From positions 340-64,339 of the forward strand of contig DATBHR010000099.1 of NCBI GenBank assembly GCA_036557365.1: a stretch of DNA of 64,000 nt, in the 5' to 3' direction. Of this stretch, positions 2,276 through 49,750 are shown one piece after another (position 1 is the first letter of the stretch; the number at the start of each line of letters is the position of its first letter). Position numbers and translations under genes: made by a program. The notes under the pieces are model-generated. The model had not been told where the DNA came from and did not search any database. It saw nothing but the letters and a program-made list of their open reading frames with translations. Source of the DNA: Vicinamibacterales bacterium (GTDB lineage: Bacteria > Acidobacteriota > Vicinamibacteria > Vicinamibacterales > CAVVIG01).

Positions 2276-2933
2276 CGAACGTAGATCGTGGAGGTTGTCG
2301 AGGGTGTCATGCGTCATGCCGAAGATCGAGATCGTGTTCCGGCACGACCCGAAAGGCGCCGATGGCGGCCAGCGTCCGGCTGTCTGCGCCGTCCAACTCG
2401 TGGACTCGGTCGCGGTCAACGACTAGCTCGCGCGCGTCACTTCGCGGCAAGTCAAGATCCCGCATTCGCGCGTTCCGCGGATCGCGATCGTCCCGGTCGC
2501 GCGGATCGTACACGCGCCATTCGTTGCCGCGATCGCGGGTATCGTGTTCCCGTGGATCACTCCATCGTGAGTTGGATATCGCTCCTCCTTGCGATAGTGC
2601 AGCGGTTGCGTTGTCGGTGAAGACGCCCTGGCAGTTGTTGCCAGAGGTGGTTCAGGAAGGTGCCCGAAGTGCCGGCCGTTTTGCCGGGCCTTCAACGGCG
2701 TGGTCGAGATGAGGAATCCAAGCGCGGGCTCTGATGAGCGCCGGGCGGATTCAGCCTGCGTGCTGACACGATGCAACGAGGCCGCAGCCCGACCAGACTG
2801 CGTCGACCGTTATACGCCTCGGTGAACTGCATCGCAAGCCGCCCGACGCTCGTCCACATTTGGGCTGCCTGCTCCCCCATCCTAGCGGCGTCATTGAGCA
2901 CGGGAACCGCAGACTACGCGATCGCAGGGGCGA

Positions 2934-3398
2934 CTATCGACGAACCTTTTCAATGATTCTCACTTCGGGTCCGCGGGAGATCTTCGCAATGAAGCCGTTT
3001 GCCGCGTGCTGCCGGCATAGGCGCGTCATGGCGCGTACGGCAGACAGAATGAGAGAAGCGGCCTCGTCGCCGGTCAACGACGAGGACGTGATGCTGAAGA
3101 AACGGAGCTTCGCGGCGAGGACGGCTTGTTTCTCGAGCTGGTTGTATCGAATTCGATCGTCACGAGTGATAACCACCCATCGATTGGCTCCTGCTTCGCC
3201 CAACCAGACAACATCCTGCGTTCCTTGAGGAAACAGTTCATCGTGAACGCGGACATCAAGCCCAGCGGCCCGCAAAGCTTCGGGCACCTTTTTGCGGCCG
3301 AGAGATCGATCGATGAAGAATACGAGGGGCTCAGGCAGCTTTCGCCGGCTGGAGCTCGCAGCGGACGGCTTCTTCGATGTTGAGCGGCTCCTCGCCAT
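2934..3398 (-). CDS. DUF5615/PIN-like toxin (VapC45-like)
   Basis: LVFFIDRSLGRKKVPEALRAAGLDVRVHDELFPQGTQDVVWLGEAGANRWVVITRDDRIRYN is typical of the Mut7-C/DUF5615 toxin partner of DUF433 proteins. It lies directly downstream of, and overlaps, the DUF433 gene. The true start is uncertain, because the ATG at 3398 overlaps the upstream gene by 68 nt. Confidence 0.6.
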   Translation of the reverse strand: MARSRSTSKKPSAASSSRRKLPEPLVFFIDRSLGRKKVPEALRAAGLDVRVHDELFPQGTQDVVWLGEAGANRWVVITRDDRIRYNQLEKQAVLAAKLRFFSITSSSLTGDEAASLILSAVRAMTRLCRQHAANGFIAKISRGPEVRIIEKVRR

Positions 3399-4086
3399 AG
3401 TCTTCAGCGAGATCAGCGATCGACTCGCCCGCCTTGTACCGATCCGCTATCACGGCGGTCGGCACCGCCGACACCTTTAGAATAGGCCGGCCGAACTCCA
3501 CCCGCGGATCCATCGCGACCACTCGGGGCTGCGAGGCTTCTTCAGCAGGACTCTGTCGACTGCGCGTAAACGGATAGAGGCGCGCGACGAATCCGTCCTT
3601 GTCCCAGTCCACCCGCTGAAGATGCAAGCCAATTAGATCACGCATCGCGAGTTGGCCGTGCCTGGATGCATTGATCACATCCTTGAGGCCCGCCGCTTCA
3701 ACGAAAAGGTGTTTGCCGTCCGTGAGCATCTCGTGGTGAACCAGCGGATGCTGAGTCCGGAAGTGCTCGCGCAGGTAATTGACGGCACGCCGAATCTGCG
3801 GCAGTTCGACCTGATATTGGCGCCGCAGGGCGTCCAGGACATGCGCTTCGGTGAGGTTGCTGAATGATAGCCGGGCGTTCGCCGAATCTGCGAGTTCGAT
3901 GACCGGGTCAGATCGGCGGTGTGCGCCGGACCGCAACGGGTACGAGCGTCCGGAAACCCAGGAACGAAGCGTGTTCTCGGGAATCTGCAGGTACCGCGAG
4001 GCTTCGAACACCGAGTACAGGGGTACTTCCAGGACTTGAGGTCCCGAGTACAACTGCTCCAGGTTCCGACGTCTGGTGACGGCCAC
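3331..4086 (-). CDS. HTH + DUF433 antitoxin-like protein (VapB45-like)
   Basis: The N-terminus carries a helix-turn-helix, YSVFEASRYLQIPENTLRSWVSG. The C-terminus has the DUF433 block DPRVEFGRPILKVSAVPTAVIADRYKAGESIADLAEDYG. Confidence 0.65.
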   Translation of the reverse strand: MAVTRRRNLEQLYSGPQVLEVPLYSVFEASRYLQIPENTLRSWVSGRSYPLRSGAHRRSDPVIELADSANARLSFSNLTEAHVLDALRRQYQVELPQIRRAVNYLREHFRTQHPLVHHEMLTDGKHLFVEAAGLKDVINASRHGQLAMRDLIGLHLQRVDWDKDGFVARLYPFTRSRQSPAEEASQPRVVAMDPRVEFGRPILKVSAVPTAVIADRYKAGESIADLAEDYGEEPLNIEEAVRCELQPAKAA

Positions 4087-4197
4087 GCGCCAATCCTAAC
4101 TCGTCGTCAGCAACGGCACAAATCGCCAGCGTACCCGCCCGTTGGTCACCCGTTTGGCGGAGCCGTTGCGGCGTACCGACAGGCAACGAATCAGTCA

Positions 4198-5166
4198 TCA
4201 TGCGGCACACGCTTGGTCGCGGTCGCCCAACGACTGACGGCACAGATCGAATGCGGCATCCCGCCAGTACGAATATTTGAACTTGAAACCATGCTCGAGC
4301 AATCTGGCGGGAACAACTCGTCGGCTCTTGAGAATGAGTTCGGTTTCCGTGCGCATGAAGACAGCGCCGATCTCGAGCATCCACTTCATTGCAGGCAGGC
4401 CGAGCGGAACGCCACACGCCTCGCGAAGTATCTGCATGAACTCTGCATTCGGCAAGGGGTTTGGCGCCGCGATGTTCACGGCTCCTTCGACGTCATCGTG
4501 GTCGATCAACCATCTAACCGCCGCGATGAAGTCCTCGTAGTGAACCCACGACATGAACTGTCGTCCGTCACCTGCACTGCCGCCGAGGCCGTGGCGTACC
4601 AAGGCGAGGAGCGTGTCGAACACGCCTCCAGCGTCCGGACTTAACGTCATTGCAGACCGAAGTGCAACCTTCCGAGTTCCATCAACAACCTGTTCTTCGA
4701 AGGCGCCCTCCCATGCCTGCGCGACGTCAATGCTGAATCGCCAAGTGTCTGGTGCGTCAGGTTCCTGGCCACCAAGAATTCCTGAGTACTCGTCGTTCGG
4801 ACTGTCGTACCGGTGCGCATAAATCGTCGCGGTGCTCGCCTGCAGCCACACGCGTGGCTTGCATGTCGCCGCCGCGATTGCCTGTCCAACGACACGTGTC
4901 GACAACACACGCGATTGCATGATCTCGGCTCGATTCGCTGCCGTGTACCGGCAGTTGACGCTGCGGCCGGCCAAATTGATCACGACATCGCAGCCATCGA
5001 TTTCGCGTTGCCACTTGCCTAGGGTCGCGCCATCCCATGCGACCACCCGCCACAGACTGCGCTGCGGTTGTCGGCTGAGCACGACGACATCGTGGCCTCC
5101 GCGGTGAAACGCTCTCGCCAAGATCGTGCCGACCTGTCCGGCCCCACCTGGAATGACGATCTTCAT
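4198..5166 (-). CDS. TIGR01777-family NAD-dependent epimerase/dehydratase with C-terminal DUF1731
   Basis: It starts MKIVIPGGAGQVGTILARAFHRGGHDVVVLSR (Rossmann GxxGxxG). ATG is at 5164-5166, and the longer track ORF is an upstream extension. The C-terminal part, ...ILKSRRVVPARLLEHGFKFKY, is typical of DUF1731. Confidence 0.8.
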   Translation of the reverse strand: MKIVIPGGAGQVGTILARAFHRGGHDVVVLSRQPQRSLWRVVAWDGATLGKWQREIDGCDVVINLAGRSVNCRYTAANRAEIMQSRVLSTRVVGQAIAAATCKPRVWLQASTATIYAHRYDSPNDEYSGILGGQEPDAPDTWRFSIDVAQAWEGAFEEQVVDGTRKVALRSAMTLSPDAGGVFDTLLALVRHGLGGSAGDGRQFMSWVHYEDFIAAVRWLIDHDDVEGAVNIAAPNPLPNAEFMQILREACGVPLGLPAMKWMLEIGAVFMRTETELILKSRRVVPARLLEHGFKFKYSYWRDAAFDLCRQSLGDRDQACAA

Positions 5167-5180
5167 ACGGCTCTCCCCGT

Positions 5181-5630
5181 TCACTCGACGAATCGGTCCC
5201 GGAATTCCCGCCGCGGCGCAAGACACTGCTCGAAGCGGCCGAACACCCGATACCGGTTTCGGGCAACGACGTTGTAAGCGCGATCCAGCAGCGCGCTTGG
5301 CAGGACGCGCGCAATGATTGCCGCCTTCCACGGCCAACCAAGCTGGCCTGCGACGAAGAGCGCTGCTTGGCTCTTAGCAAAAATCTGGCTGTGACGCGTC
5401 CGGTAGTTTGCCAAAACGTAAAACGACGTCAGTTCCGTGGGGTCGCCGCCGACATCTTCAACCACCGAGCGGCCAGTTGCGCTCTGCAGCGAAGCGAACG
5501 CGAACACGCCGCGCCGGTCATGGGGGAGAAGGAACTGGAGCAGGCTGCTGCACAGCCCACACACCCCGTCGTAGAGCACGAGGTGAGCGCCTCCCCCAGC
5601 GGATGCAGGTTGCATCAGTGAATCAGCCAT
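5181..5630 (-). CDS. thiol-disulfide oxidoreductase, DCC family (DUF393)
   Basis: It has the LVLYDGVCGLCSSLLQFLLPHDRRG motif (CxxC) and a C-terminal NRYRVFGR block. Confidence 0.8.
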   Translation of the reverse strand: MADSLMQPASAGGGAHLVLYDGVCGLCSSLLQFLLPHDRRGVFAFASLQSATGRSVVEDVGGDPTELTSFYVLANYRTRHSQIFAKSQAALFVAGQLGWPWKAAIIARVLPSALLDRAYNVVARNRYRVFGRFEQCLAPRREFRDRFVE

Positions 5631-5642
5631 GCTCTAATATTA

Positions 5643-6362
5643 ATGAACATGTTCACTAAAAATATCAAGCCGCGAAAACGGGGCCGTCCGGCCGGTCCAA
5701 CGGCTCAGGGCGCCGCAGCGAGAGACCGCCTGTACGCGACGGCGACGCAGTTGATCGCCGCCCGCGGCTATGAAGCGACGACCCTTCGGGACATCGCCAA
5801 GGAAGCGGGGGTCAGTGTCGGCCTTCTGTATCGCTACTTCCCAAGCAAACAGGCTGTCGTCATCGCGCTCTATGACCAACTGTCATCGGAGTACGCGCAG
5901 CAGACGGCGAGTATTCCGTCCGGTCGATGGCGAGACCGTTTCATCTTCGCCCTGAAGACCAGCCTCGATGTCCTCGAGCCGCATCAGATGGCGCTCCGGG
6001 CTCTGACGCCTGTCATGGTTGGCGACCCTGAAGAAGGCATCTTCTCCCCGAGCACGGCGTTCTCCCGCCTTCGCGTCCAGCGGGTGTTCGAGCAGGTTGT
6101 CGCCGAGTCGAGTGATGCCCCGAAACAGCCACTTACCGAAGCGCTCGGGCGTCTCTTGTATCTCGTCCACCTGGCAGTGCTCCTGTGGTGGCTACTGGAC
6201 AAGAGTCCGAATCAGCGCGCGACCGCGTCGCTGGTGTTACTGACCCAGCAACTCCTGCCCTCCGCGGGGCTGGCGCTTCGTGTTCCGCCGGTTCGCAAGT
6301 TCGTGATCTCCGTCGACGAACTGGTTCGTGAGGCCCTGTTCGGCAGCCCAGTCTCTGCCTGA
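5643..6362 (+). CDS. TetR/AcrR family transcriptional regulator
   Basis: The N-terminal HTH reads RDRLYATATQLIAARGYEATTLRDIAKEAGVSVGLLYRYFPSK. It is divergent from the DCC gene with only 12 bp between the annotated starts. Confidence 0.85.
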   Translation: MNMFTKNIKPRKRGRPAGPTAQGAAARDRLYATATQLIAARGYEATTLRDIAKEAGVSVGLLYRYFPSKQAVVIALYDQLSSEYAQQTASIPSGRWRDRFIFALKTSLDVLEPHQMALRALTPVMVGDPEEGIFSPSTAFSRLRVQRVFEQVVAESSDAPKQPLTEALGRLLYLVHLAVLLWWLLDKSPNQRATASLVLLTQQLLPSAGLALRVPPVRKFVISVDELVREALFGSPVSA

Positions 6363-6369
6363 GGCATCG

Positions 6370-6957
6370 ATGTTCCTGGCTCGACGTCCAACTCGTAGCG
6401 TCATCGATCGATTCATCCGCGAATCGCAGGACCTGCCGCTGTCGTACGGACCAATCGGAATCGTCCGAACCCGGACGATCGGTCAGGACGTCGACGAGGT
6501 GACTGTCACCATCGGGCGGGGACAATCCGACTTCGAGCGAGCACGAGCCGCGCTACTCGCATGGAAGCAGTTCGACATCGGCTGGGTCGAAACGTTTCCG
6601 CGTCAGGCACCTATCGCCTTCGGGACTGTTGTTGCCGTGCTGATCCGACATCTCGGGTTCTGGTCCTTGAACGGTTGCCGTGTCTTGTACACCGTCGGAA
6701 GCCAGGGTGATGTCGCTCGGTTTGGTTTCGCATACGGAACGCTGACGAACCACGCCGAGAGCGGCGAAGAGCTCTTCGAGGTCTTCCTCGACCCGCGGAC
6801 GGAGGAAGTTGCGTATCGAATCCGCGCGACTTCTTCACCACAGGCCACGCTCGCCCGATTCGGCCAGCCAATTGTGCGTTCGCTTCAAAAGCGATTCCGA
6901 GATCACTCAGTGGCTGCGATGAAAGTGGCAACACGCTCCAACGGCGTTCAAGCATGA
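6370..6957 (+). CDS. DUF1990 domain-containing protein
   Basis: It starts MFLARRPTRSVIDRFIRESQDLPLSY and contains ...GFAYGTLTNHAESGEELFEV..., as in DUF1990 proteins. ATG is at 6370, 8 nt after the TetR stop. Confidence 0.7.
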   Translation: MFLARRPTRSVIDRFIRESQDLPLSYGPIGIVRTRTIGQDVDEVTVTIGRGQSDFERARAALLAWKQFDIGWVETFPRQAPIAFGTVVAVLIRHLGFWSLNGCRVLYTVGSQGDVARFGFAYGTLTNHAESGEELFEVFLDPRTEEVAYRIRATSSPQATLARFGQPIVRSLQKRFRDHSVAAMKVATRSNGVQA

Positions 6958-7862
6958 GCATCTACGTCGAGATTCTTGTTCGGGCGCCGATCGATACGCT
7001 CTGGTCACATACGCAGACGCCAGCACTGCACGAGCGGTGGGATCTGCGCTTCTCGCGAATCGAATACCTCCCGAGAAACGGTAAGTCGGAACCGCAACGA
7101 TTCCAGTACGCGACGCGGATCGGTTTCGGTCTTGAGGTCAGCGGCAAAGGCGAGACCGTGGGGCGGCGAGATTCAAGTGACGGCAGCTCCACCTCCGCGC
7201 TGAAATTCGGCTCGGATGAACCGCTCTCGATCATCAGCGAAGGTAGTGGTTACTGGAAGTACATCCCTACAGAGAGCGGAGTTCGATTCTTGACCTGGTA
7301 TGACTACCGAACGCGTTTCGGCGTGGCAGGCACACTTTTCGATCGATTGATCTTCCGTCCGCTGATCGGCTGGGCGACGGCCTGGAGCTTCGATCGTCTG
7401 CGTTTGTGGCTCGAGCAGGATGTGGCCCCGGAGCAGGCGATCCGGCAGTCGCTGATTCACGCGATCTCACGTGTCGCCATTGCCGCCATCTTCATCTATC
7501 ACGGGCTCATTCCGAAGCTACTCACCCGGAACGTCGATGAAATCGCTATGGTCCGCGACGCCGGGCTCGCCGCCGGTGTTGCGGGCTTCGTAGTCACTGC
7601 CCTCGGCATTCTTGAATTGTCGTTCGCGGCGGCGCTGCTTGTCGCTTGGCACCGGCGCTGGCCCCTGCTTGTTTGCCTCGGGTTGATGCTGGTCGCCACT
7701 GCGGGCGTCGGAATAAATTCACCGCGATATTTCAGTACGGCGTTCAATCCGTTTACGCTGAACCTCGCGGTCGCCTGCCTCGCGAGCATCGACCTTCTTG
7801 TGGTCGGAAAAATTCCGTCCGCCGCACATTGCCTGCGGCGTCCTGGACCGGAGAAGGCATGA
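6954..7862 (+). CDS. SRPBCC-domain / DoxX-like membrane domain fusion protein
   Basis: The N-terminal half, MSIYVEILVRAPIDTLWSHTQTPALHERW, is SRPBCC/polyketide-cyclase-like. The C-terminal half has 4 predicted TM helices (AIFIYHGLIPKLL ... LLVCLGLMLVATAGV), as in the DoxX-like family. ATGA start/stop overlaps occur at both ends. Confidence 0.65.
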   Translation: MSIYVEILVRAPIDTLWSHTQTPALHERWDLRFSRIEYLPRNGKSEPQRFQYATRIGFGLEVSGKGETVGRRDSSDGSSTSALKFGSDEPLSIISEGSGYWKYIPTESGVRFLTWYDYRTRFGVAGTLFDRLIFRPLIGWATAWSFDRLRLWLEQDVAPEQAIRQSLIHAISRVAIAAIFIYHGLIPKLLTRNVDEIAMVRDAGLAAGVAGFVVTALGILELSFAAALLVAWHRRWPLLVCLGLMLVATAGVGINSPRYFSTAFNPFTLNLAVACLASIDLLVVGKIPSAAHCLRRPGPEKA

Positions 7863-8530
7863 AATCGATTTATGAGCACGTGCTCGGATCCGACTTTCAC
7901 CGGCTGCACCCGCAAATTCAGCGCCGGTTCGGCTTCTCAAGCTCCGACAGGATGGCCTCGATCGGTACTGGCGTAATGGACGAGATCTGGAAGGGCAGGT
8001 TCTACACGGAGCCGTTCCTTCGCGTCGGCAGCTGGCGGCGCATCATGTTTCCTGAGACGGGACGAAACATCCCGTTCACGATCGAGAACTATGCCTTCGT
8101 CGATCAATTCGGGCGAGAGACGGTCTCGTGGGTTCGAACGTTCAAATCGCGGCGAACGCGTCGGTTCGATGCGTACATGGTCTACAGCGACTCTCGACGT
8201 CGGATTGTGGACTACCTGGGGTCACACGAGCACCTGGCAGTTGATATCGACCTGTCGGTAGACGAGGCAGGCGGACTAAGGCTGCGATCGGGTGCGCAGC
8301 GGTTCTATGAGGGTGTGATTGGGTTCAACTTCCCGATGCTGTTCAGCGGGATCGCTGACGTCCGGGAATGGTACGACGATGCGGCCGGATGTTTTCGAAT
8401 CGTCGTCGACGTACAGAACAGCGTTTGGGGACCGTTGTTTGGCTACCGCGGGAGCTTCAACGTCGAGTGGCGGAAGGTGACGGAAGTTCCCAGTCACATC
8501 CTTCCGAAGCGCCAGGAACGGCGGGACTAA
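7860..8530 (+). CDS. DUF4166 domain-containing protein
   Basis: MKSIYEHVLGSDFHRLHPQIQRRFGFSS... is the characteristic DUF4166 N-terminus. ATG at 7860 overlaps the previous stop. Confidence 0.7.
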
Positions 8531-38464: not shown

Positions 38465-39637
38465 TCACGATGCCGCGAACAGCGAGGCGATCGTGTTCAC
38501 CGCTCGCTCGGCCTCGGCGCGGTCCGGCTTCTCGTTGTCCTCGTTGTAGCCGTAGTAGTCGCTCTCGCCGGTGACCTGAAACACGAGACCGTCGCGACGC
38601 GGGACGAACCCGACGTTCTTGTAGAAGAGCCCGTAGGTCACGTCGGAGTCCGGCATGGTGCGCGCGAGCTGTCCGCGCACCGGAACGATCGAGTTGTCGG
38701 CGAACAGCGCACGCGCACCGTACCCGGTGGCGTTGACCAGCGTCTTTTCCTTCAAACGGACGAAATCTGCCGGCGTGTGAAATTCCGCGATTTCGATCTT
38801 GCCGCCGTTCGCGGTGAAGTCCGTCACCAGCGTTCGCGCATACGAAGTGATGTTGAACATCAGCTGCGAATTGCGCATCAGGGTCCGGTGACCCAACGTG
38901 TGCTGGCCGGGCTCGTACTGAACGGGGCGCGGCACGAGATCGGGGATCAGCTCGCGCTGCAGTTCCGCGAACGGCGGCTTGCCTTCCAGTGGCGGGCGAG
39001 ACCGTTCCGCCGCGGGATCGTCGGACACGAAGTAGCTGTCGATGAACTCGACGGGTGTGCCGGCGAGGCCGAGAAAACTCTGATACCTCTCGAACGAAGC
39101 TCGAGCCATCTGCGCCCACTGCTGCTTGAACGCCGGCGTTGCGTGTTCCTCCAGGCAAATGCGCGAATCCGGAGTGAACAGCCCTGTCGCCAGCGAGGAG
39201 CGCACATTCGGCGGCATGTCCTTGGCGTAGATCGTCACGTGCGCGCCGGCGCGCTGCAGCAGCAGCGCCGTCGTCAAGCCGAGCGCGCCGCAGCCGATCA
39301 CCGCGATGTCGTGTTCGCCCGTCGCCATCGCATTGGCCGTGGCGATGGCGCCCGAGCCCCACGACAATGACCACCCGCTGCCGCCGTGGCCGTAGTTGTG
39401 GACGACCGTCTTCGTGCCGATCTTCTCCACGTCGAGCCGCGGACCCTGCGCGCGGAAGGGACGGGTGCAGACCGTGATGCGCGTGATGTGATCGACACCC
39501 GTGCGCAGCGGCCGCAGCTGCAACGTGGGCGTGGCGGGTCCTTCGCGCACCGACCGGCAACCGTCGAGGATGCCGAGTGCGGCAACCGCTCCGGCGCCCG
39601 CGAGGAACTGACGACGTCCGATGACTGATTTCTGCAT
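38465..39637 (-). CDS. FAD-dependent oxidoreductase (DAO family) with twin-arginine signal
   Basis: The Tat motif is GRRQFLAGAGAVAALG. The dinucleotide fold is DIAVIGCGALGLTTALLLQRAGAHVTIYAKD. Confidence 0.75.
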   Translation of the reverse strand: MQKSVIGRRQFLAGAGAVAALGILDGCRSVREGPATPTLQLRPLRTGVDHITRITVCTRPFRAQGPRLDVEKIGTKTVVHNYGHGGSGWSLSWGSGAIATANAMATGEHDIAVIGCGALGLTTALLLQRAGAHVTIYAKDMPPNVRSSLATGLFTPDSRICLEEHATPAFKQQWAQMARASFERYQSFLGLAGTPVEFIDSYFVSDDPAAERSRPPLEGKPPFAELQRELIPDLVPRPVQYEPGQHTLGHRTLMRNSQLMFNITSYARTLVTDFTANGGKIEIAEFHTPADFVRLKEKTLVNATGYGARALFADNSIVPVRGQLARTMPDSDVTYGLFYKNVGFVPRRDGLVFQVTGESDYYGYNEDNEKPDRAEAERAVNTIASLFAAS

Positions 39638-39691: not shown

Positions 39692-40228
39692 TCAGCGCTT
39701 TCGCTGCTGAATCTGTGCGAGGAAGAATTCCTTCAGCTTTTCGTTCGTGAGTCCGAGCTGCGTCGCTTCGTCCAGCGCCTTGTCGGTGTCCCATCCGTCG
39801 ACCATCGTGCGTTTCATGAGCCACATCCCGGCGGCTCTTCCACCGCCCGCTCAATGAATGAACGCCGGCTGGACGCCCGGCGCGGTGATCGTCTTCAGGA
39901 ACGTGTCGACGGCGGCTGGATCCGGCGCCGACCCGCTGAATGGGATGTGATAGTAGGGGATGCCGGTCGCTTTTGCCGCGGCGATGTTCGCGTCGATGTC
40001 GGCACCCGGCTCACTCGCGAGACGCAGGTTGATGATCGACGCGTAACCCATCTTCTTGATTTCGGTGATTGCCGACGGCGTGATGGCGCCCGCGCACGCC
40101 ACCGTCGTTTCAATCTTGGCGAAGTTCCGGATGCCGGGAACTTCCTGCTTCACAACCTGCGCGCTCGCCGCGGCTGCCGTCAGCCAGACGACGGCGAACG
40201 GCGCAACCCTCGCAACCCACAATCGCAT
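39692..40228 (-). CDS. secreted DUF442/DSP-phosphatase-like P-loop protein with an in-frame TGA at the catalytic Cys position (Sec candidate or fresh pseudogene)
   Basis: GGAGGTG lies 5 nt before the ATG at 40226-40228. The signal peptide is MRLWVARVAPFAVVWLTAAAASAQ. The body, ...MGYASIINLRLASEPGADID...GIPYYHIPFSG...PAFIH, is followed by TGA (39851-39853) and then in-frame AGGGRAAGMWLMKRTMVDGWDTDKALDEATQLGLTNEKLKEFFLAQIQQRKR to TGA at 39692-39694. H-[TGA]-AGGG-R reproduces the H-C-X4-R loop. Confidence 0.55.
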
Positions 40229-40433
40229 GGCGCACCTCCGTGGTGCGCAGCTTACCACCTGACGAATGTCAGTTCGCATGCGCCGCGGACCGTCGCTGCG
40301 CCTCACCGTGTTGGACGAGCGACTGCACAGGATCACTCGTTCACCGGACACCTCTTCGGTGCATCCGTCGCTCCGGCCGACGGGATCGTGCCGGTCGAGA
40401 GCTGGCTGGAGGCGCAGCCCGCGATTGTGCCCG

Positions 40434-41999: not shown

Positions 42000-42569
42000 C
42001 TATCGGTGAAGCGCTCCTTCGTGCATGAGCGTGTAGCTGCCGACGGAGCGTTCATTGCCGTCCGCCTGCGTGGTCAGGAGGATCTCGACTGTGGTGACGG
42101 GGAGTTGACGGACCCATTTCGCGGGCAGCGAGTAGATGACTTCGTCGGGCGAGCCGCCGGCGACGTATCCGGTCGAGCGGAGCACTTCGTTTCCCGCGAC
42201 GCGTTGTGACATGGTCACCTCGCCTGCGCCGCCAAAGTTGGCGCGCAGCCGGAGCACCATCACCTCGTCGTCCGCCCACACGGCGCAGGGGACCACGGCA
42301 CCTGGCGACAGGACGAACGTCCGCACGTGCACCCCGTCGCGTGCCAGCTGGTTCAGGACATCTTCCGTGACGAAGCCGCCGACGTCGGCGGATCGGATTG
42401 CGGGCGGAATCGCGCGCACGAGTGCGTCGATCTCGGCCGCCCGCACCGCGCAGTCGGCACACGAGAAGAGGTGCTCTTCGATCGCCGCCGCGTCGGCGTC
42501 GGACAACTCGCCCGCGGCGTAGTCGGTCAGCGCGGCGAGCGCGATCCGGGCGCATCCTGCAGGAGTCAT
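42000..42569 (-). CDS. zf-HC2 anti-sigma factor
   Basis: The N-terminus, LTDYAAGELSDADAAAIEEHLFSCADCAVRAAEIDAL, carries the H-x3-C-x2-C motif. It overlaps the sigma factor stop by 4 nt. Confidence 0.65.
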   Translation of the reverse strand: MTPAGCARIALAALTDYAAGELSDADAAAIEEHLFSCADCAVRAAEIDALVRAIPPAIRSADVGGFVTEDVLNQLARDGVHVRTFVLSPGAVVPCAVWADDEVMVLRLRANFGGAGEVTMSQRVAGNEVLRSTGYVAGGSPDEVIYSLPAKWVRQLPVTTVEILLTTQADGNERSVGSYTLMHEGALHR

Positions 42570-43144
42570 GAGCGCACTCCTCCCATCACGCAGTCGCGAA
42601 GGCGCACGATCGCCCGATGCCGGATCACACGAACGGCGCCCGGCGAGAGGTTCAACTCCTCGGCGATGCGCGGCGCCTCACGATCCGCGTAGTACGTGAG
42701 CATGACGACGAGCCGTTCCCGCTCCGCGAGTTCGCGCAGGCACGCGGCCACGCGCGGACCATCGAGCGCCGCCATCGACGGCGGTGCGGTCTCGAACGAT
42801 GTATCGACGAAGCGCGCCGTCAGCGACTCCCTTCGCCGCGCGATCCGGCGTTCGGCGTGGCACATCATCCGGCTGGTTCCCAGGATGAACGATCCGATCA
42901 GCTCCATTTTCTGTACTTCGCCGGCCCGCAGCCGTTCGATCGCGAGCAGGAGGACTTCCTGCGCGAGATCGTCGGCGGCCGCATCGCTCCGCAGGTGGCG
43001 GCGGCCGTAGAGCCGAACCCGCGGTGCGAAGCGGCGATAGAGCTCCGATTCCTCGGCGTCGGTGGATCCCGAGGGACCGCCGGCAATTCGCCGCGCAAGC
43101 GCTTCGTCGCTCACGGCCTCGATCGTCGCGTGCGTGTCCGGCAT
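42566..43144 (-). CDS. ECF-type sigma-70 family RNA polymerase sigma factor
   Basis: Region 2 is LYRRFAPRVRLYGRRHLRSDAAADDLAQEVLL. Region 4 is YYADREAPRIAEELNLSPGAVRVIRHRAIVRLR. Confidence 0.85.
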   Translation of the reverse strand: MPDTHATIEAVSDEALARRIAGGPSGSTDAEESELYRRFAPRVRLYGRRHLRSDAAADDLAQEVLLLAIERLRAGEVQKMELIGSFILGTSRMMCHAERRIARRRESLTARFVDTSFETAPPSMAALDGPRVAACLRELAERERLVVMLTYYADREAPRIAEELNLSPGAVRVIRHRAIVRLRDCVMGGVRS

Positions 43145-43159
43145 GCAGCCGGACGGTAC

Positions 43160-43912
43160 TCAAGCGACGCGCGGCGCGTCAAGCGGTGCGGCGCCAAGAC
43201 GACGCTGCAGCATGTCGGCGGCGGACCGCAACGCGGCCGCGCCATCGCCGACGAACGTGGATCCGTGCATCGCCGCGAGAATCTTCGGCTGCAGATCGGC
43301 GAGCTCGTTCAGTCGCCGCCGCGTGGCCGGCGTCAGCGGGACGTAGTCCATCAGGACCGGATGCTGCTGATAAGCGGCCACTGCGGCATCCCATCGGCCG
43401 AGGACGTCGTTGGACGTGACCGGCTCGACGTCGCCGACCTGGTGAAACAGATCCGAGCACAAAAGCACGCCCGATTTCTCTTCGAAGAGCACGCCAGCGT
43501 CCCAGCCGTGCGGCAGATGAGGCGTCGGGACGTATCGATACCGATGACGTCCGGTCTCGATCACATCGTTCTTCGACAAGCCGACGGGAGGACGGTCGGC
43601 GAAGTCTTCGATGTTGACCATGGCGCCCACCTGGCTGCAGATGGCTTGCGCGTTCGGGGCAGCCGCGAGCCATTCGTTCAAGGCACCGCACTCGTCCACC
43701 TCGAAGTGGCTCCAGCTGATCCAGCGGAGCGCCGCGGGATCCATCAGCTTTGCGACGGCGTCACGCACTTCCGGGAACATCTTCCGTAAGCCGGTATGGA
43801 AGAGCAGCGGCTCGTCGTCCTTGATCACGAAGTGATTGAACTGCAGGTCGATCTGCGGCACGTAGATGGACACTCGAAACAAATCGGGCGCAATTTCGTC
43901 GATCCGGGCCAT
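43160..43912 (-). CDS. MBL-fold (ODP/FprA-like di-iron type) protein
   Basis: It contains IAPDLFRVSIYVPQIDLQFNHFVIKDDEPLLFHTG and ISWSHFEVDECGAL (HxExD-like metal motif). The family assignment is tentative. Confidence 0.5.
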   Translation of the reverse strand: MARIDEIAPDLFRVSIYVPQIDLQFNHFVIKDDEPLLFHTGLRKMFPEVRDAVAKLMDPAALRWISWSHFEVDECGALNEWLAAAPNAQAICSQVGAMVNIEDFADRPPVGLSKNDVIETGRHRYRYVPTPHLPHGWDAGVLFEEKSGVLLCSDLFHQVGDVEPVTSNDVLGRWDAAVAAYQQHPVLMDYVPLTPATRRRLNELADLQPKILAAMHGSTFVGDGAAALRSAADMLQRRLGAAPLDAPRVA

Positions 43913-44003
43913 CGAACACCTCCTTGACGCGGCCTCTTTCGCGGCGTCCTGAGAGGAAGTGCCACGAGCCGTCCATGTGTTACGCGGGCCCCGCGGCCAG
44001 ATA

Positions 44004-46409
44004 TCACTCCGAGCGCAGGGTCATCATCGGATCGACGCGGGTCGCGCGTCGCGCCGGGACGTAACTGCCCGCGAGCGCGATCGCCATCAGGATCGCAGCG
44101 ATCGAAGCAAACGTCGTCGGATCCGTCGGCGTGACGCCGAACAGCAGCGCCGCCATCAGCCGCGTCGTCGCGACGGCGCCTGCGACGCCGAGCACGACGC
44201 CGGCCGCTGCCAGCACGAACGCCTCGCCCAGCACCATCCGCATCACGTCGCTCGTTGTCGCGCCCAGGGCCACTCGGACGCCGAGTTCCCGCGCGCGTTC
44301 AGAGACCGTGTATGCCATGACGCCGTAGATCCCGATGGCGGCCAGCGCGAGGCCGAGGATCGCGAAAATGGCCACCAGCGTCGTGCGGAAGCGCGGTGCG
44401 GCCACGGAGTCGTTCATCAGCTGATCGATCGTGTACAACCGCGTGACCGGCACATCGCGATCCAGTGCGGACACGATCGTTCGGATCGAATTGAGCGCCG
44501 ATCGCGGATCGGCGGAGGTGCGGACCAGCACGTAGCGGCTGTTAAATGGCTGCTGGCGGTCGGCGAGATAGAAGGCCGGCTCCGCCGGCGCGTTGAGGCC
44601 GGAGTACTTGACGTCGCCCACGACGCCCACGATTTCCATCCATGGATTCTTCGGCCGCTCAGAGCCTCCCTGCTTCAATCGTTTGCCGACGGCATTGCCA
44701 CCCGGAAAGTAGCGAGTGGCGAGCGTCTCGTTCACGATGACCGCCCACGGCGCGCCGGGTGCGTCGCGCTCGTCGAAGAATCGGCCAGCCACGAGCGGAA
44801 CGCCAAGCGTCTTGAAATAGTGTTCGTCCACGAAGATGAGCGGCGCGACGGGCGGACTCTGGTTCGGCGGAATCTGCTGTCCTTCCGCGATGAAGTTGTC
44901 CGTCATCGTGTTTCCGTCCGGCGGCACACTCGTCGCACTGCCGACCGACTGGATGGCTGGGTCGGCCTCGAGCCGCGATCGCAGCGCGTCGAACAGCCCG
45001 GAAATTTTCTGCGGCGTGTCGTACCGGCGCTCCGGCAGGTTCAGGCGGAACGTGACGAGATGTGCCGGCGCAAAGCCGGGACTGACGCTCGCCAACGCCG
45101 CCATGCTGCGGATCATCAGGCCTGCGCCGACAGACAGGATCAGCGCCAGCGCAATTTCACAGACGACGAGCGCGCGCTGCGTGCGGCGCTGGCTCATGCC
45201 CGCTCCGCTGCGTCCACCTTCTTTCAGGCTTTCGACGAGCGGCAGTCCGGCGGCCCGGAGTGCCGGCGCGAGGCCGAACAGAACGCCGCACAAGGAAGCG
45301 ACGCCGACGGCGAACGCAAACACGGTCGCGTTCAACCGCACCTCGTCGAGGCGCGGGATTCCGTCGGGCGCGATCGCGAGCAGCGCTCGCGTGCCCCACG
45401 ACGCGATCAGCAGCCCGGCCAGACCGGACAGCACGCCGAGGACCACGCTCTCGGTGACGAGTTGCGCGACGATGCGCGCGCGTCCTGCGCCGATGGCCGT
45501 GCGGACAGCGATCTCACGCGTCCGCGAGCCGGCGCGCGCGAGCAGCAGGTTGGCGACGTTGGCCGTCGCGATCAGGAGCAGGAATCCGACGGCGCCGAAC
45601 AATAGATAGAGCATGCGGCGCACGTTGCCGACCATCTGTTCCTGCAGCGGCACGAGCGAGTACGTCCACTGGTTCGGTCCGGGATAGCTGCGCTTGAGGT
45701 TGTCCGCGATGACGGAAAGATTCGTGCGCGCACGCTCGAGGCTCGTGTCCGCCTTCAGGCGCGCGATCCCTCGCGTGTAGAACGGTCCGCGCCGCGTTGC
45801 CGGTCCTATCGTAAGGATTCGCCAGCCGTCGAGATCCTTCTCCGGAAACGCAAAGGACGCCGGCATCACACCGACAATCGTGTGGCTGACGCCGTCGAGC
45901 AGAACGGACTGGCCGATCGCGCGTTCGTCACCGTGGAAGTGCTGCTGCCAGAACGCCTGGCTCAACACGATGGACTTCGGCACTCCCGGTCCGTCTTCGC
46001 CGTCGTTGAACGTGCGGCCGAGCAGCGGTGCGACGCCGAGCGTCGCGAAGAACCGGTCGGTCACGTTGCGCACGATGATGCGTTCCGCGTTTCCTTCGCC
46101 AGTCAGCGCGAGGCCCTCGCCCCCGTCGTAGGCGGCCACGGACGAGAACGCCTCGTTCTGCTCCCGCCAGGCGATGAAGTCAGCGTCGGGCAGCGGGTAT
46201 GTGTCTCCGTCGTCTCCATGAATCGTCAGTTGAACGAGTCGATCCGGCTGGGCGAACGGCAAGGGACGAAGCAGCACCGCCTCGACCACCGAGAAAATGG
46301 AGGTCGAAGCGCCAACGCCGAGCGCGAGCGTCAGGATGGCGACCGCGGCGAAGCCCGGGCGTTTGACGAGAAGACGCAGTGCGAACCGGACGTCCTGGAG
46401 GGTACGCAT
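44004..46409 (-). CDS. ADOP-family duplicated MacB/FtsX-like permease (orphan: no PadR or ATPase gene adjacent)
   Basis: An 801-aa protein with two MacB_PCD + FtsX modules. It starts LQDVRFALRLLVKRPGFAAVAILTLALGVGASTSIF and ends ...YVPARRATRVDPMMTLRSE. Confidence 0.9.
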   Translation of the reverse strand: MRTLQDVRFALRLLVKRPGFAAVAILTLALGVGASTSIFSVVEAVLLRPLPFAQPDRLVQLTIHGDDGDTYPLPDADFIAWREQNEAFSSVAAYDGGEGLALTGEGNAERIIVRNVTDRFFATLGVAPLLGRTFNDGEDGPGVPKSIVLSQAFWQQHFHGDERAIGQSVLLDGVSHTIVGVMPASFAFPEKDLDGWRILTIGPATRRGPFYTRGIARLKADTSLERARTNLSVIADNLKRSYPGPNQWTYSLVPLQEQMVGNVRRMLYLLFGAVGFLLLIATANVANLLLARAGSRTREIAVRTAIGAGRARIVAQLVTESVVLGVLSGLAGLLIASWGTRALLAIAPDGIPRLDEVRLNATVFAFAVGVASLCGVLFGLAPALRAAGLPLVESLKEGGRSGAGMSQRRTQRALVVCEIALALILSVGAGLMIRSMAALASVSPGFAPAHLVTFRLNLPERRYDTPQKISGLFDALRSRLEADPAIQSVGSATSVPPDGNTMTDNFIAEGQQIPPNQSPPVAPLIFVDEHYFKTLGVPLVAGRFFDERDAPGAPWAVIVNETLATRYFPGGNAVGKRLKQGGSERPKNPWMEIVGVVGDVKYSGLNAPAEPAFYLADRQQPFNSRYVLVRTSADPRSALNSIRTIVSALDRDVPVTRLYTIDQLMNDSVAAPRFRTTLVAIFAILGLALAAIGIYGVMAYTVSERARELGVRVALGATTSDVMRMVLGEAFVLAAAGVVLGVAGAVATTRLMAALLFGVTPTDPTTFASIAAILMAIALAGSYVPARRATRVDPMMTLRSE

Positions 46410-46544
46410 GCGGGTTAGACGGAAGGGGAGAGCAGGGAGTTGGCCGACAGGCGCAACGTTCGACTGGCGTGTCGGTGAGTCCGCGGCGCGCCGCCTCGCG
46501 TGGGCTCGGCGGGCGCGCCCGACTCAGTGTTACAGCTGACGGAG

Positions 46545-47006
46545 CTACTTCTTGCGGCGGTTGTAGGTCACGTGCGTGACCCCGGTGATCTTTCCATCCT
46601 TGTCCATCCGGATGTACTCGTTGTTGATCGTGTTGTTGTCGGCCGTCAACGTATTGATCACGACCTGGTAGACCACGCCGTTCCGCTTGTTGTAGATGCG
46701 GGTGCTCTTGTCGTTGATGACCTCGACCGCCGTCTCGGAGTTCTGCTGACCCTCGACCGGGCGGAATTTGCCGTCGAACATCGTGACGTAGCTCCACGTG
46801 GCCTTCGGATCGCTCGGATTGCTGACCGTGATCTTCATGCCGCCCTTCTCGTAGGGCTCGTACGTCATGACGTTGTTCGGGTTCGTCGAATTGTCCCAGA
46901 CCCCGAATCGCGTCTCGCCCTGCGCCCATGCCGGCATGGCGGAGACGATGGCGGCGGTGATCGCCGCCAGAGAGATAGTAAGAATTCGCTGCTTCATCGA
47001 TGACAC
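46545..47006 (-). CDS. small secreted hypothetical protein (possibly lipocalin-like)
   Basis: It has a signal peptide, LTISLAAITAAIVSAMPAWAQ, followed by a GVW motif and beta-rich sequence. Its GC content is noticeably lower than its neighbours. Confidence 0.4.
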   Translation of the reverse strand: MSSMKQRILTISLAAITAAIVSAMPAWAQGETRFGVWDNSTNPNNVMTYEPYEKGGMKITVSNPSDPKATWSYVTMFDGKFRPVEGQQNSETAVEVINDKSTRIYNKRNGVVYQVVINTLTADNNTINNEYIRMDKDGKITGVTHVTYNRRKK

Positions 47007-47065
47007 CTCTTTGTCGCCACAAGGGCGCCTGTCAGCATACCGCAGGCGCCCCCCGATCGGCGGGA

Positions 47066-49249
<2,184 letters not shown>

Positions 49250-49255
49250 TTACCT

Positions 49256-49750
49256 CTATTTCTTGTGGGAGCGTGCTCGGGTCGTCCGGCGTCGCCGACC
49301 GCGTGCAGGCGGCCGCCTGCGTGACGCCGTGTGCGCCTTGGCGAGGCAGTCCGGACACCGGCCCCAATAGGCGACTTCCGCCTCCTCGATCTCGTAACCC
49401 CCATCATCCATCGCCGTGAGACATGGAGCCGAGCCCACGGCGCAGTCGACGTCGACGACGCGGCCGCAGACGCGACAGATGAGATGATGGTGATTGTCGC
49501 CGACGCGATCCTCGAATCGAGCCGGCGAGCCGGCAGGCTGGATGCGCCGAATCAGGCCTTCGGTGACCAGAAGTCCCAGCGCATCGTAGACCGACTGCAG
49601 CGAGATCGCACCGATCTCTGCGCGAACCGCATCAGCTACAGCGTCGGCCGTGATGTGCGGCTCCGCGGCGACGGCGCGCAGCACTGCGAGCCGCTGCGCA
49701 GTGACCTGGATGCCGCGCTGCCGAAGCACGTCGCGCTTGTCGCTGTTCAT
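49256..49750 (-). CDS. furA: Fur-family transcriptional regulator (FurA/PerR-like, upstream of katG)
   Basis: It contains [29 protein letters not shown] and GRCPDC (two CxxC pairs). The last ~30 residues form an unusual basic tail, [21 protein letters not shown]. Confidence 0.85.

Follow-up and report, generated by a model that had tools for sequence, protein, structure and literature searches.

A predicted secreted DUF442 protein with an in-frame TGA at its catalytic cysteine position, a probable selenoprotein of Vicinamibacterales

The May 2026 catalogue of prokaryotic (bacterial and archaeal) selenoproteins holds 119 families (PMC13188914), a list dominated by thioredoxin-fold proteins. 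Closest in chemistry to the gene described here are its rhodanese-like selenoproteins (PF00581 forms 1-5), in which an active-site loop of sulfurtransferase type has selenocysteine (Sec) in place of its catalytic Cys; these likewise form Sec/Cys pairs, are decoded from UGA and have an in-frame bacterial Sec insertion sequence (bSECIS) downstream. The DUF442 domains of Blh and of the Cupriavidus sulfide:quinone oxidoreductase (SQR) are experimentally characterized rhodanese-type sulfurtransferases that need their active-site Cys (PMC5823870, PMC9163753). This report concerns a DUF442 gene in a 64,000-nucleotide (nt) stretch of contig DATBHR010000099.1 from a Vicinamibacterales bacterium of the Acidobacteriota (the window, to which all coordinates without a locus name refer). 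The gene lies on the minus strand at 39692-40228, is 178 codons long and has an in-frame TGA at codon 126 (39851-39853). Comparative analysis indicates that it is very probably a true selenoprotein gene with standard bacterial Sec decoding, its UGA standing at the position of the catalytic Cys. The TGA is kept at this Cys column among relatives, the sequence downstream of it is translated, an RNA-level constraint is specific to the TGA-bearing forms, and the protein has the DUF442 fold. A first-pass annotation made from the sequence of the window had proposed that a secreted, DUF442/phosphatase-like protein forms such a Sec/Cys pair at its catalytic Cys, and this is borne out by the homologues: Cys occupies the column in 110 of 112 full-length proteins and TGA in 35 other independent sequences.

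The coordinates given in that annotation for the start codon, ribosome-binding site, signal-peptide-like N-terminus and both TGA codons proved exact when the sequence was re-read. After codon 126 the frame stays open for 52 codons (AGGGRAAGMWLMKR...QQRKR) before a second TGA. Public annotation splits the gene into a 125-amino-acid (aa) DUF442 phosphatase and a 44-aa orphan open reading frame (ORF). The parts of the gene, as coding sequence (CDS) and associated signals, are as follows.

40233-40239, minus strand: Shine-Dalgarno-like GGAGGTG, read from the sequence, ending 5 nt upstream of the ATG
40160-40228, minus strand: start ATG (40226-40228) and predicted Sec-type (export) signal peptide, codons 1-23, MRLWVARVAPFAVVWLTAAAASA, from the translation
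39854-40228, minus strand: CDS part 1, codons 1-125, ending ...PAFIH; taken by gene callers as a complete 125-aa protein
40094-40096, minus strand: Cys45 in an invariant T-V-A-C-A-G, candidate resolving or partner cysteine, from both protein alignments
39851-39853, minus strand: in-frame TGA, proposed Sec codon 126, at the nucleophile position of an H-(C/U)-X4-R loop, from the alignment column
39695-39850, minus strand: CDS part 2, codons 127-178, P-loop and C-terminal helices, from dN/dS and synonymous variation
39692-39694, minus strand: true stop TGA of the 178-codon gene, from the sequence

The predicted signal peptide would end at the boundary between MRLWVARVAPFAVVWLTAAAASA and QVV, where A-x-A precedes Gln24 (the cleavage site was placed by eye). 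A hydrophobic N-terminus comparable to that of the window protein is present in all homologues, and in an AlphaFold model of the closest Cys form, P0001, residues 1-21 have low confidence, as a signal peptide would give. Cys45 is invariant in both protein alignments (A2 and A4) and sits in the strand formed by residues 43-46 of the same model.

A 52-codon open frame alone is unremarkable in DNA of 65% GC content. The read-through frame goes beyond chance because full-length homologues, found among the 5,053 homologues recovered by a search of 5.8 billion proteins, align to its product over 100% of its length at 75-77% identity. These full-length proteins are about 177-179 aa long, and nearly all read PAFIH-C-x4-RAA at the TGA column. 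Another six clusters share 87-93% identity with the window protein; every one is exactly 125 aa long and ends in ...PAFIH. The DNA behind these six clusters, from independent JGI, ENA and Logan assemblies, reads CAT-TGA-GCG, followed by 52 open codons, a stop and then unrelated sequence.

A degenerate DNA pattern specific for the TGA form (P-A-F-I-H-TGA-x-x-(G/A)-x-R-A) was also searched against one genome per bacterial and archaeal species, 596 Gb in all. It returned 32 loci, 29 of them true homologues with TGA and 51-52 conserved in-frame codons and only three chance matches, which again places the read-through frame beyond chance. The same TGA column is thus found in 36 independent sequences: the window, six metagenome contigs and 29 species-representative genomes. 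The carriers are almost all Vicinamibacterales/Acidobacteriota metagenome-assembled genomes (MAGs). Four bins (L018, L024, L027 and L031) are labelled Terriglobia, Acidimicrobiia, Bifidobacteriaceae and Gemmatimonadaceae and hold typical Vicinamibacterales-type TGA-form genes; these labels probably reflect mis-binning or loose labelling and not true spread across phyla. In three long-read MFD MAGs (L014, L016 and L022) the part before the TGA is out of frame and the 52 downstream codons are intact, probably as a result of indel errors in assembly.

The codons after the TGA are, from their pattern of substitution, under purifying selection as protein. By the Nei-Gojobori method, synonymous divergence (dS) over the 52 downstream codons is 0.27-0.60 with a ratio of non-synonymous to synonymous divergence (dN/dS) of 0.04-0.21; for the mature domain upstream of the TGA the values are 0.28-0.61 and 0.03-0.07. 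The neutral drift for which the first-pass annotation had suggested checking these codons is therefore absent. No complete locus has a frameshift or stop within the 51-52 codons after the TGA, and similarity collapses directly at the second stop, identity over the next 60 nt being at chance level. The terminator of the gene is itself TGA in 20 of the 25 complete related loci; TGA is therefore still a stop in these organisms, and the genetic code has not been reassigned.

Downstream of the TGA, RNAfold and RNAalifold predict a hairpin at nt 17-36 after the U of UGA. It can be compared with the published bSECIS consensus, which has an apical loop of 3-9 nt, an upper stem of 4-16 base pairs (bp), a minimum free energy (MFE) of -7.5 kcal/mol or lower, a G in the first two loop positions (usually followed by G or U) and a distance of 16-37 nt between UGA and loop (PMC13188914). 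The hairpin here has a stem of 7 bp, a loop of 6 nt whose positions 2 and 3 are both G, a spacing of 20 nt and an energy of -10.5 kcal/mol, in agreement with all four published criteria. The first-pass annotation had located this hairpin correctly; it had described a 5-bp stem with a 10-nt loop, which the additional G-U and C-G pairs extend to the present form, and had called it weak, a description that does not fit an element conserved among the TGA forms and constrained at the RNA level in these forms only. The elements concerned are as follows.

39818-39837, minus strand: proposed SECIS core, stem GAGCCGC/GUGGCUC with apical loop CGGGAU at 39825-39830, from fold and conservation
39809-39850, minus strand: codons +1 to +14 after the TGA, over which synonymous variation is suppressed, from codon entropy
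39806-39849, minus strand: possible lower SECIS stem (nt 5-10 with nt 43-48 after the U of UGA), weakly supported, from RNAfold/RNAalifold

The upper stem is paired in 100% of alignment cells across 29 distinct sequences, with six pairs constant and one changing from A-U to G-U; this answers the question of fold conservation among TGA-containing homologues that had been raised in the first pass. The predicted lower stem is paired in 87% of cells, three of its five pairs are often broken, and it was set aside as weak. A GGCGG/CCGCC hairpin (39830-39847), which the first-pass annotation had offered as an alternative SECIS, is the less likely element: its loop starts 8 nt after the UGA, closer than the minimum of 16 nt, and six GCA variants (described below) do not form its outer pair.

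Synonymous variation is strongly reduced across this region. In 28 codon-aligned TGA forms the synonymous-codon entropy of codons +1 to +14 is 0.58, as against 1.19 for the rest of the gene (permutation p~1e-5), and the lowest entropy windows of the gene fall here. The codons GGC (+2), GCC (+6) and CTC (+11) are invariant in all 28 forms, the rare Arg codon AGA is favoured (23 of 28), and the His before the UGA is always encoded by CAT, while 27 of 28 forms use CAC for the other conserved His. A distant Cys clade (CASGNRAAAMWLIKR; 62 unique genes from a metagenome scan) served as a control without SECIS, since the closest Cys forms still carry the hairpin. These 62 genes have no local dip in entropy (1.31 versus 1.47, p=0.11), and the codons for R-A-A-x-M-W-L vary freely (entropies of 1.64, 1.74 and 1.74 for Ala and 1.78 for Leu). 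The presence of the dip in TGA forms and its absence from the Cys clade indicate an RNA-level constraint specific to the TGA-bearing genes.

Two synonymous changes within the hairpin, GCC to GCA and GGG to GGT (nt 24 and 27; 39830 and 39827; C..G to A..U), always occur together, in six of the 36 sequences. On trees built from either half of the gene the coupled change falls in at least three separate places, and no intermediates with a single change are found. In the resulting variant an A-U pair closes a GGUA tetraloop on a stem of 8 bp (-11.9 kcal/mol). Like the SECIS of Escherichia coli fdhF, the proposed element is a hairpin within the CDS just after the UGA, has an apical motif of the G-G-U type and fits the same consensus model, and the apical element of the variant, GCA[GGUA]UGU, resembles the GCA[GGUC]UGC of fdhF. 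The loop here is, however, one codon further from the UGA (nt 25-28 versus 22-25), and the common form differs from fdhF in its 6-nt loop CGGGAU and in having no evident bulged U.

The Cys forms closest to the window gene are P0001 (L040:1443-1979 and L041:3554-4090) and P0006 (L042:4001-4543, a Vicinamibacterales MAG). Both have CAT-TGC followed by an intact hairpin that includes the rare AGA/AGG Arg codon, and the sequence of P0006 is close to those of the TGA forms L012, L030 and L039. The simplest reading of these sequences is that P0001 and P0006 are recent Sec-to-Cys reversions with a fossil SECIS. Within the Vicinamibacterales, a single origin of the Sec form from a Cys ancestor appears to have been followed by several returns to Cys, with hairpins left behind as fossils. 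A further gene, P0056 (L043:91-684, 1.58x coverage), has TGG (Trp) at the Sec/Cys column, an intact hairpin and a divergent, longer C-terminus; the TGG is either a sequencing error or the mark of an inactivated copy. Two TGA-form genes, L001:6487-7023 and L002:1495-2031, are identical over the 125 codons before the TGA (102 codons were compared as DNA, with no differences). Over the 52 codons after it they have a dS of about 0.6 and 11.5 non-synonymous changes, and they differ in SECIS variant (GCA/GGT versus GCC/GGG). These differences suggest that recombination has taken place, with a breakpoint at the recoding site or close to it.

With Cys at the TGA, the 178-aa read-through product matches Pfam PF04273 (BLH_phosphatase/DUF442) with 39.5 bits against a cut-off of 26.1, over residues 39-139, a match that spans the TGA. 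Scores for two curated subfamilies fall short of their cut-offs: 44.6 bits against 85.85 for TIGR01244 and 46 against 625 for NF040641 (Blh). By sequence score the protein is a distant relative, not a member, of these subfamilies. No match to the rhodanese family PF00581 was found in a Pfam scan at E<=0.1. The AlphaFold model of P0001, a 77% identical Cys form, has a predicted local distance difference test (pLDDT) score of 85.4 and a predicted template modelling (pTM) score of 0.79. It best matches the DUF442 crystal structures 3GXH and 3GXG, with 2F46 also among the matches, followed by Tk-PTP, SsoPTP, TpbA and NMA1982; the modelled fold is thus DUF442/protein tyrosine phosphatase (PTP)-like. 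By sequence, too, the nearest solved structures are PTP-fold enzymes, and in alignments with SsoPTP (lvhCvggiGRtg) and TpbA their catalytic Cys falls at the TGA column. The classical H-C-X5-R P-loop is absent; the loop here is U-A-G-G-G-R (X4), which accounts for a one-residue gap in the SsoPTP and TpbA alignments.

Indirect evidence of Sec decoding in these organisms comes from a second gene. A scan for TGA-split ORFs with high third-position GC content on both sides gave 120 candidates, nearly all of which are off-frame noise or adjacent genes. The single credible one besides the DUF442 gene lies on L021 (none other was found in the window), at 5617-6900 on the minus strand with TGA at 6322-6324 (...LLVTWASW-TGA-GCRLD...), and is the divergent neighbour of a TGA-form DUF442 gene. 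It matches NCBIfam NF041054, "ResA-like WAxxUGC motif-containing protein" (E=7.8e-83), with the TGA exactly at U, and among its 120 best homologues at least 95 have WA(S/T)WCGC. A database search with this protein gave mostly full-length Cys forms from Planctomycetota together with unlabelled metagenome proteins. In the RNA of the L021 gene a 7-bp stem can present GGU at nt 25-27 after the UGA, in register with the DUF442 gene, although the MFE structure is a competing hairpin. WAxxUGC selenoproteins resemble the DUF442 protein in being an extracytoplasmic-type redox selenoprotein family; their thioredoxin fold is unrelated, and they bear here only on the decoding of Sec by such organisms. Selenoprotein users have been on record among the Acidobacteria since 2006, and an Acidobacteriota isolate is among the Sec users in a 2025 study.

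Several observations weigh against a Sec-decoded gene with a functional SECIS. A local tblastn search with E. coli SelA, SelB and SelD gave no selA, selB or selD match in the window and related loci (about 363 kb), and tRNA and tmRNA scans found no tRNA(Sec) in the window or in 31 related loci; these negatives carry little weight because the loci are pieces of up to 8 kb from contigs of up to 4.6 Mb. The folding energy of the hairpin is ordinary for GC-rich sequence (z=-0.42), and it was for this reason that evolutionary evidence was sought. Within that evidence, no stem pair has a classical compensatory change, each being either constant or altered on a single side, and the covarying positions are only 2 nt apart, so that they cannot form an ordinary hairpin pair with each other. 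The stem is also partly imposed by the peptide A-A-x-M-W-L, and a weaker hairpin, GCCGCG/UGUGGC, can form even in the distant Cys clade (L044:1001-1534; L054-L133); the protein sequence may have predisposed the site to evolve a SECIS. As the closest Cys forms retain the full hairpin, its conservation alone is no proof of function. No curated Rfam SECIS model matched, either at the gathering score over the whole window or at E<=10 over the locus, where only chance hits to unrelated families were obtained. Lastly, the chemical function proposed below (sulfurtransferase, phosphatase or reductase) is drawn from distant relatives.

Three other explanations of the TGA were considered. The gene could be a pseudogene in which a recent nonsense mutation of TGC or TGT, an alternative named in the first-pass annotation, has left a 125-aa truncated product and a decaying downstream frame. 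Gene callers do annotate the 125-aa product, a single base change converts TGC to TGA, and close relatives with TGC exist; a TGA held at one column in 36 independent sequences diverged to a dS of about 0.5 is nevertheless not a very recent event confined to this strain, the low dN/dS and unbroken frame downstream are not those of a decaying sequence, and the divergence of the 36 sequences excludes copies of one contaminant. We regard the probability of a pseudogene as negligible. Nearly as improbable is a split gene, in which translation would stop at the TGA and restart at an ATG nine codons further on, yielding 125-aa and 44-aa pieces without the catalytic Cys. That ATG, and a 44-aa ORF predicted from it, are present in every locus, but the eight codons between TGA and ATG, which encode the P-loop AGGGRAAG, evolve as coding sequence: six vary synonymously, and the one amino-acid change, Gly to Ser, occurs in Cys forms too. 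Such synonymous evolution implies that the ribosome reads through and does not restart. Moreover, the frozen GC-rich hairpin contains no obvious ribosome-binding site, and no activity is known for a PTP fold without its nucleophile and P-loop. The Met at +9 is also found in 50 of 62 Cys forms and so belongs to the fold instead of serving as a dedicated start.

The remaining explanation accepts recoding but with a residue other than Sec, either because a Cys-tRNA resembling tRNA(Sec) delivers Cys in a manner dependent on SelB and SECIS, or through hairpin-stimulated near-cognate read-through (Trp or Cys). Some bacteria have tRNA(Sec)-like tRNAs that insert Cys at UGA, the sequence evidence (conserved TGA, translated downstream part and constrained hairpin) shows recoding as such, whichever residue is inserted, and, as the ease of Sec-to-Cys switching in this clade shows, Cys is functional at the position. 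This explanation has more in its favour than the two above and is still unlikely: the hairpin fits a consensus specific for Sec, including the GG/GGU apical motif and spacing, a curated selenoprotein family with TGA at U adjoins the gene on L021, and there are known Sec users among the Acidobacteriota. Trp at the catalytic nucleophile would inactivate the enzyme, and if Cys were inserted, selection would favour TGC over a costly signal that is kept in at least 29 species.

Under Sec decoding, the gene would encode a single secreted (periplasmic) protein of DUF442/PTP fold. SelB with its Sec-tRNA(Sec) would be brought to the ribosome by the hairpin within the CDS, whose apical loop contains GG and lies 20 nt after the UGA, and UGA 126 would be decoded as Sec in place of the catalytic Cys of the H-C-X4-R loop. 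By analogy with characterized enzymes, the selenolate might then attack a sulfane sulfur (of thiosulfate, polysulfide or persulfide), giving a Se-S intermediate that the AGGGR loop could hold until it is passed to an acceptor or resolved by Cys45. A secreted Sec-dependent sulfurtransferase or redox enzyme is offered tentatively, at somewhat less than even probability; sulfur transfer is suggested because the characterized DUF442 domains are rhodanese-type sulfurtransferases, and a phosphatase or reductase role may apply instead. Taken as a whole, we think it likely that the gene represents the first selenoenzyme with a PTP/dual-specificity phosphatase (DSP), or DUF442, fold: a secreted Sec-dependent sulfur (or selenium) transferase of at least 29 Vicinamibacterales species, with a SECIS built on a hairpin half encoded by the peptide and with toggling between Sec and Cys that leaves fossil SECIS elements.

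The mechanism appears to be ordinary bacterial Sec decoding, and the novelty to lie in the family. The 119-family catalogue has no PTP-fold, DUF442, PF04273 or TIGR01244 entry (PMC13188914), in keeping with the first-pass remark that the family stands outside the known selenoproteins. No selenoprotein-specific model of NCBIfam release 20 matches the protein, and literature searches, together with the deep-Sep paper and its supplements, gave no prior report linking DUF442 or TIGR01244 to selenocysteine or selenoproteins. Unlike the rhodanese-like selenoproteins, the protein has a PTP/DSP-like DUF442 fold with a U-X4-R loop, carries a signal peptide and does not match PF00581. It shares PF04273 and a loop of the C-X4-R type with Blh of Xylella and Agrobacterium (NF040641) and with the N-terminal DUF442 domain of the Cupriavidus pinatubonensis SQR; those, however, are Cys proteins that are cytoplasmic or fused to a membrane enzyme, whereas the present protein is stand-alone and predicted to be secreted, has TGA at the Cys and contains the additional invariant Cys45, and the similarity is only distant. 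TpbA of Pseudomonas aeruginosa, SsoPTP and Tk-PTP, phosphatases of periplasmic or archaeal origin, share the overall fold (template modelling score 0.6-0.68) and have their catalytic Cys at the TGA column, and TpbA is periplasmic as well; their classical H-C-X5-R loop is one residue longer.

If the proposed decoding is correct, the gene would add a PTP/DUF442 fold class to the prokaryotic selenoproteome, and dozens of Vicinamibacterales genomes, along with many contigs from metagenomes, would have their annotation corrected once it is recognized. The natural Sec/Cys pairs of the clade, which share 75-77% identity and carry a SECIS that is either intact or fossil, would provide a system for comparing Sec with Cys in sulfur-transfer chemistry, as well as a view of a SECIS arising from a hairpin already implied by the protein sequence. 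The gene also points to a selenium requirement in an abundant, poorly cultured soil group, whose extracytoplasmic sulfane-sulfur or redox chemistry would depend on selenium supply.

A downstream neighbour starts 55 nt after the stop of the gene.

38465-39637, minus strand: DAO-family FAD-dependent oxidoreductase, downstream neighbour, from Pfam PF01266 (E=1.4e-26)

This oxidoreductase has a twin-arginine-like N-terminus (MQKSVIGRRQFLA). It was rejected as a conserved operon partner, as it lies beside the gene only in the nearest relatives (L001, L003, L004 and L006). The region at 42000-49750 has a stress-response character and encodes an anti-sigma factor (zf-HC2) with an extracytoplasmic function (ECF) sigma factor, an ODP metallo-beta-lactamase-fold protein, a MacB/FtsX permease, the catalase-peroxidase KatG (47066-49243) and a Fur-like regulator (49256-49750); the KatG-Fur block is syntenic with L001. 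About eleven ORFs at 2423-8530 have a third-position GC content of 0.64-0.74, compared with 0.75-0.90 elsewhere in the window, and this segment may be foreign or differently expressed.

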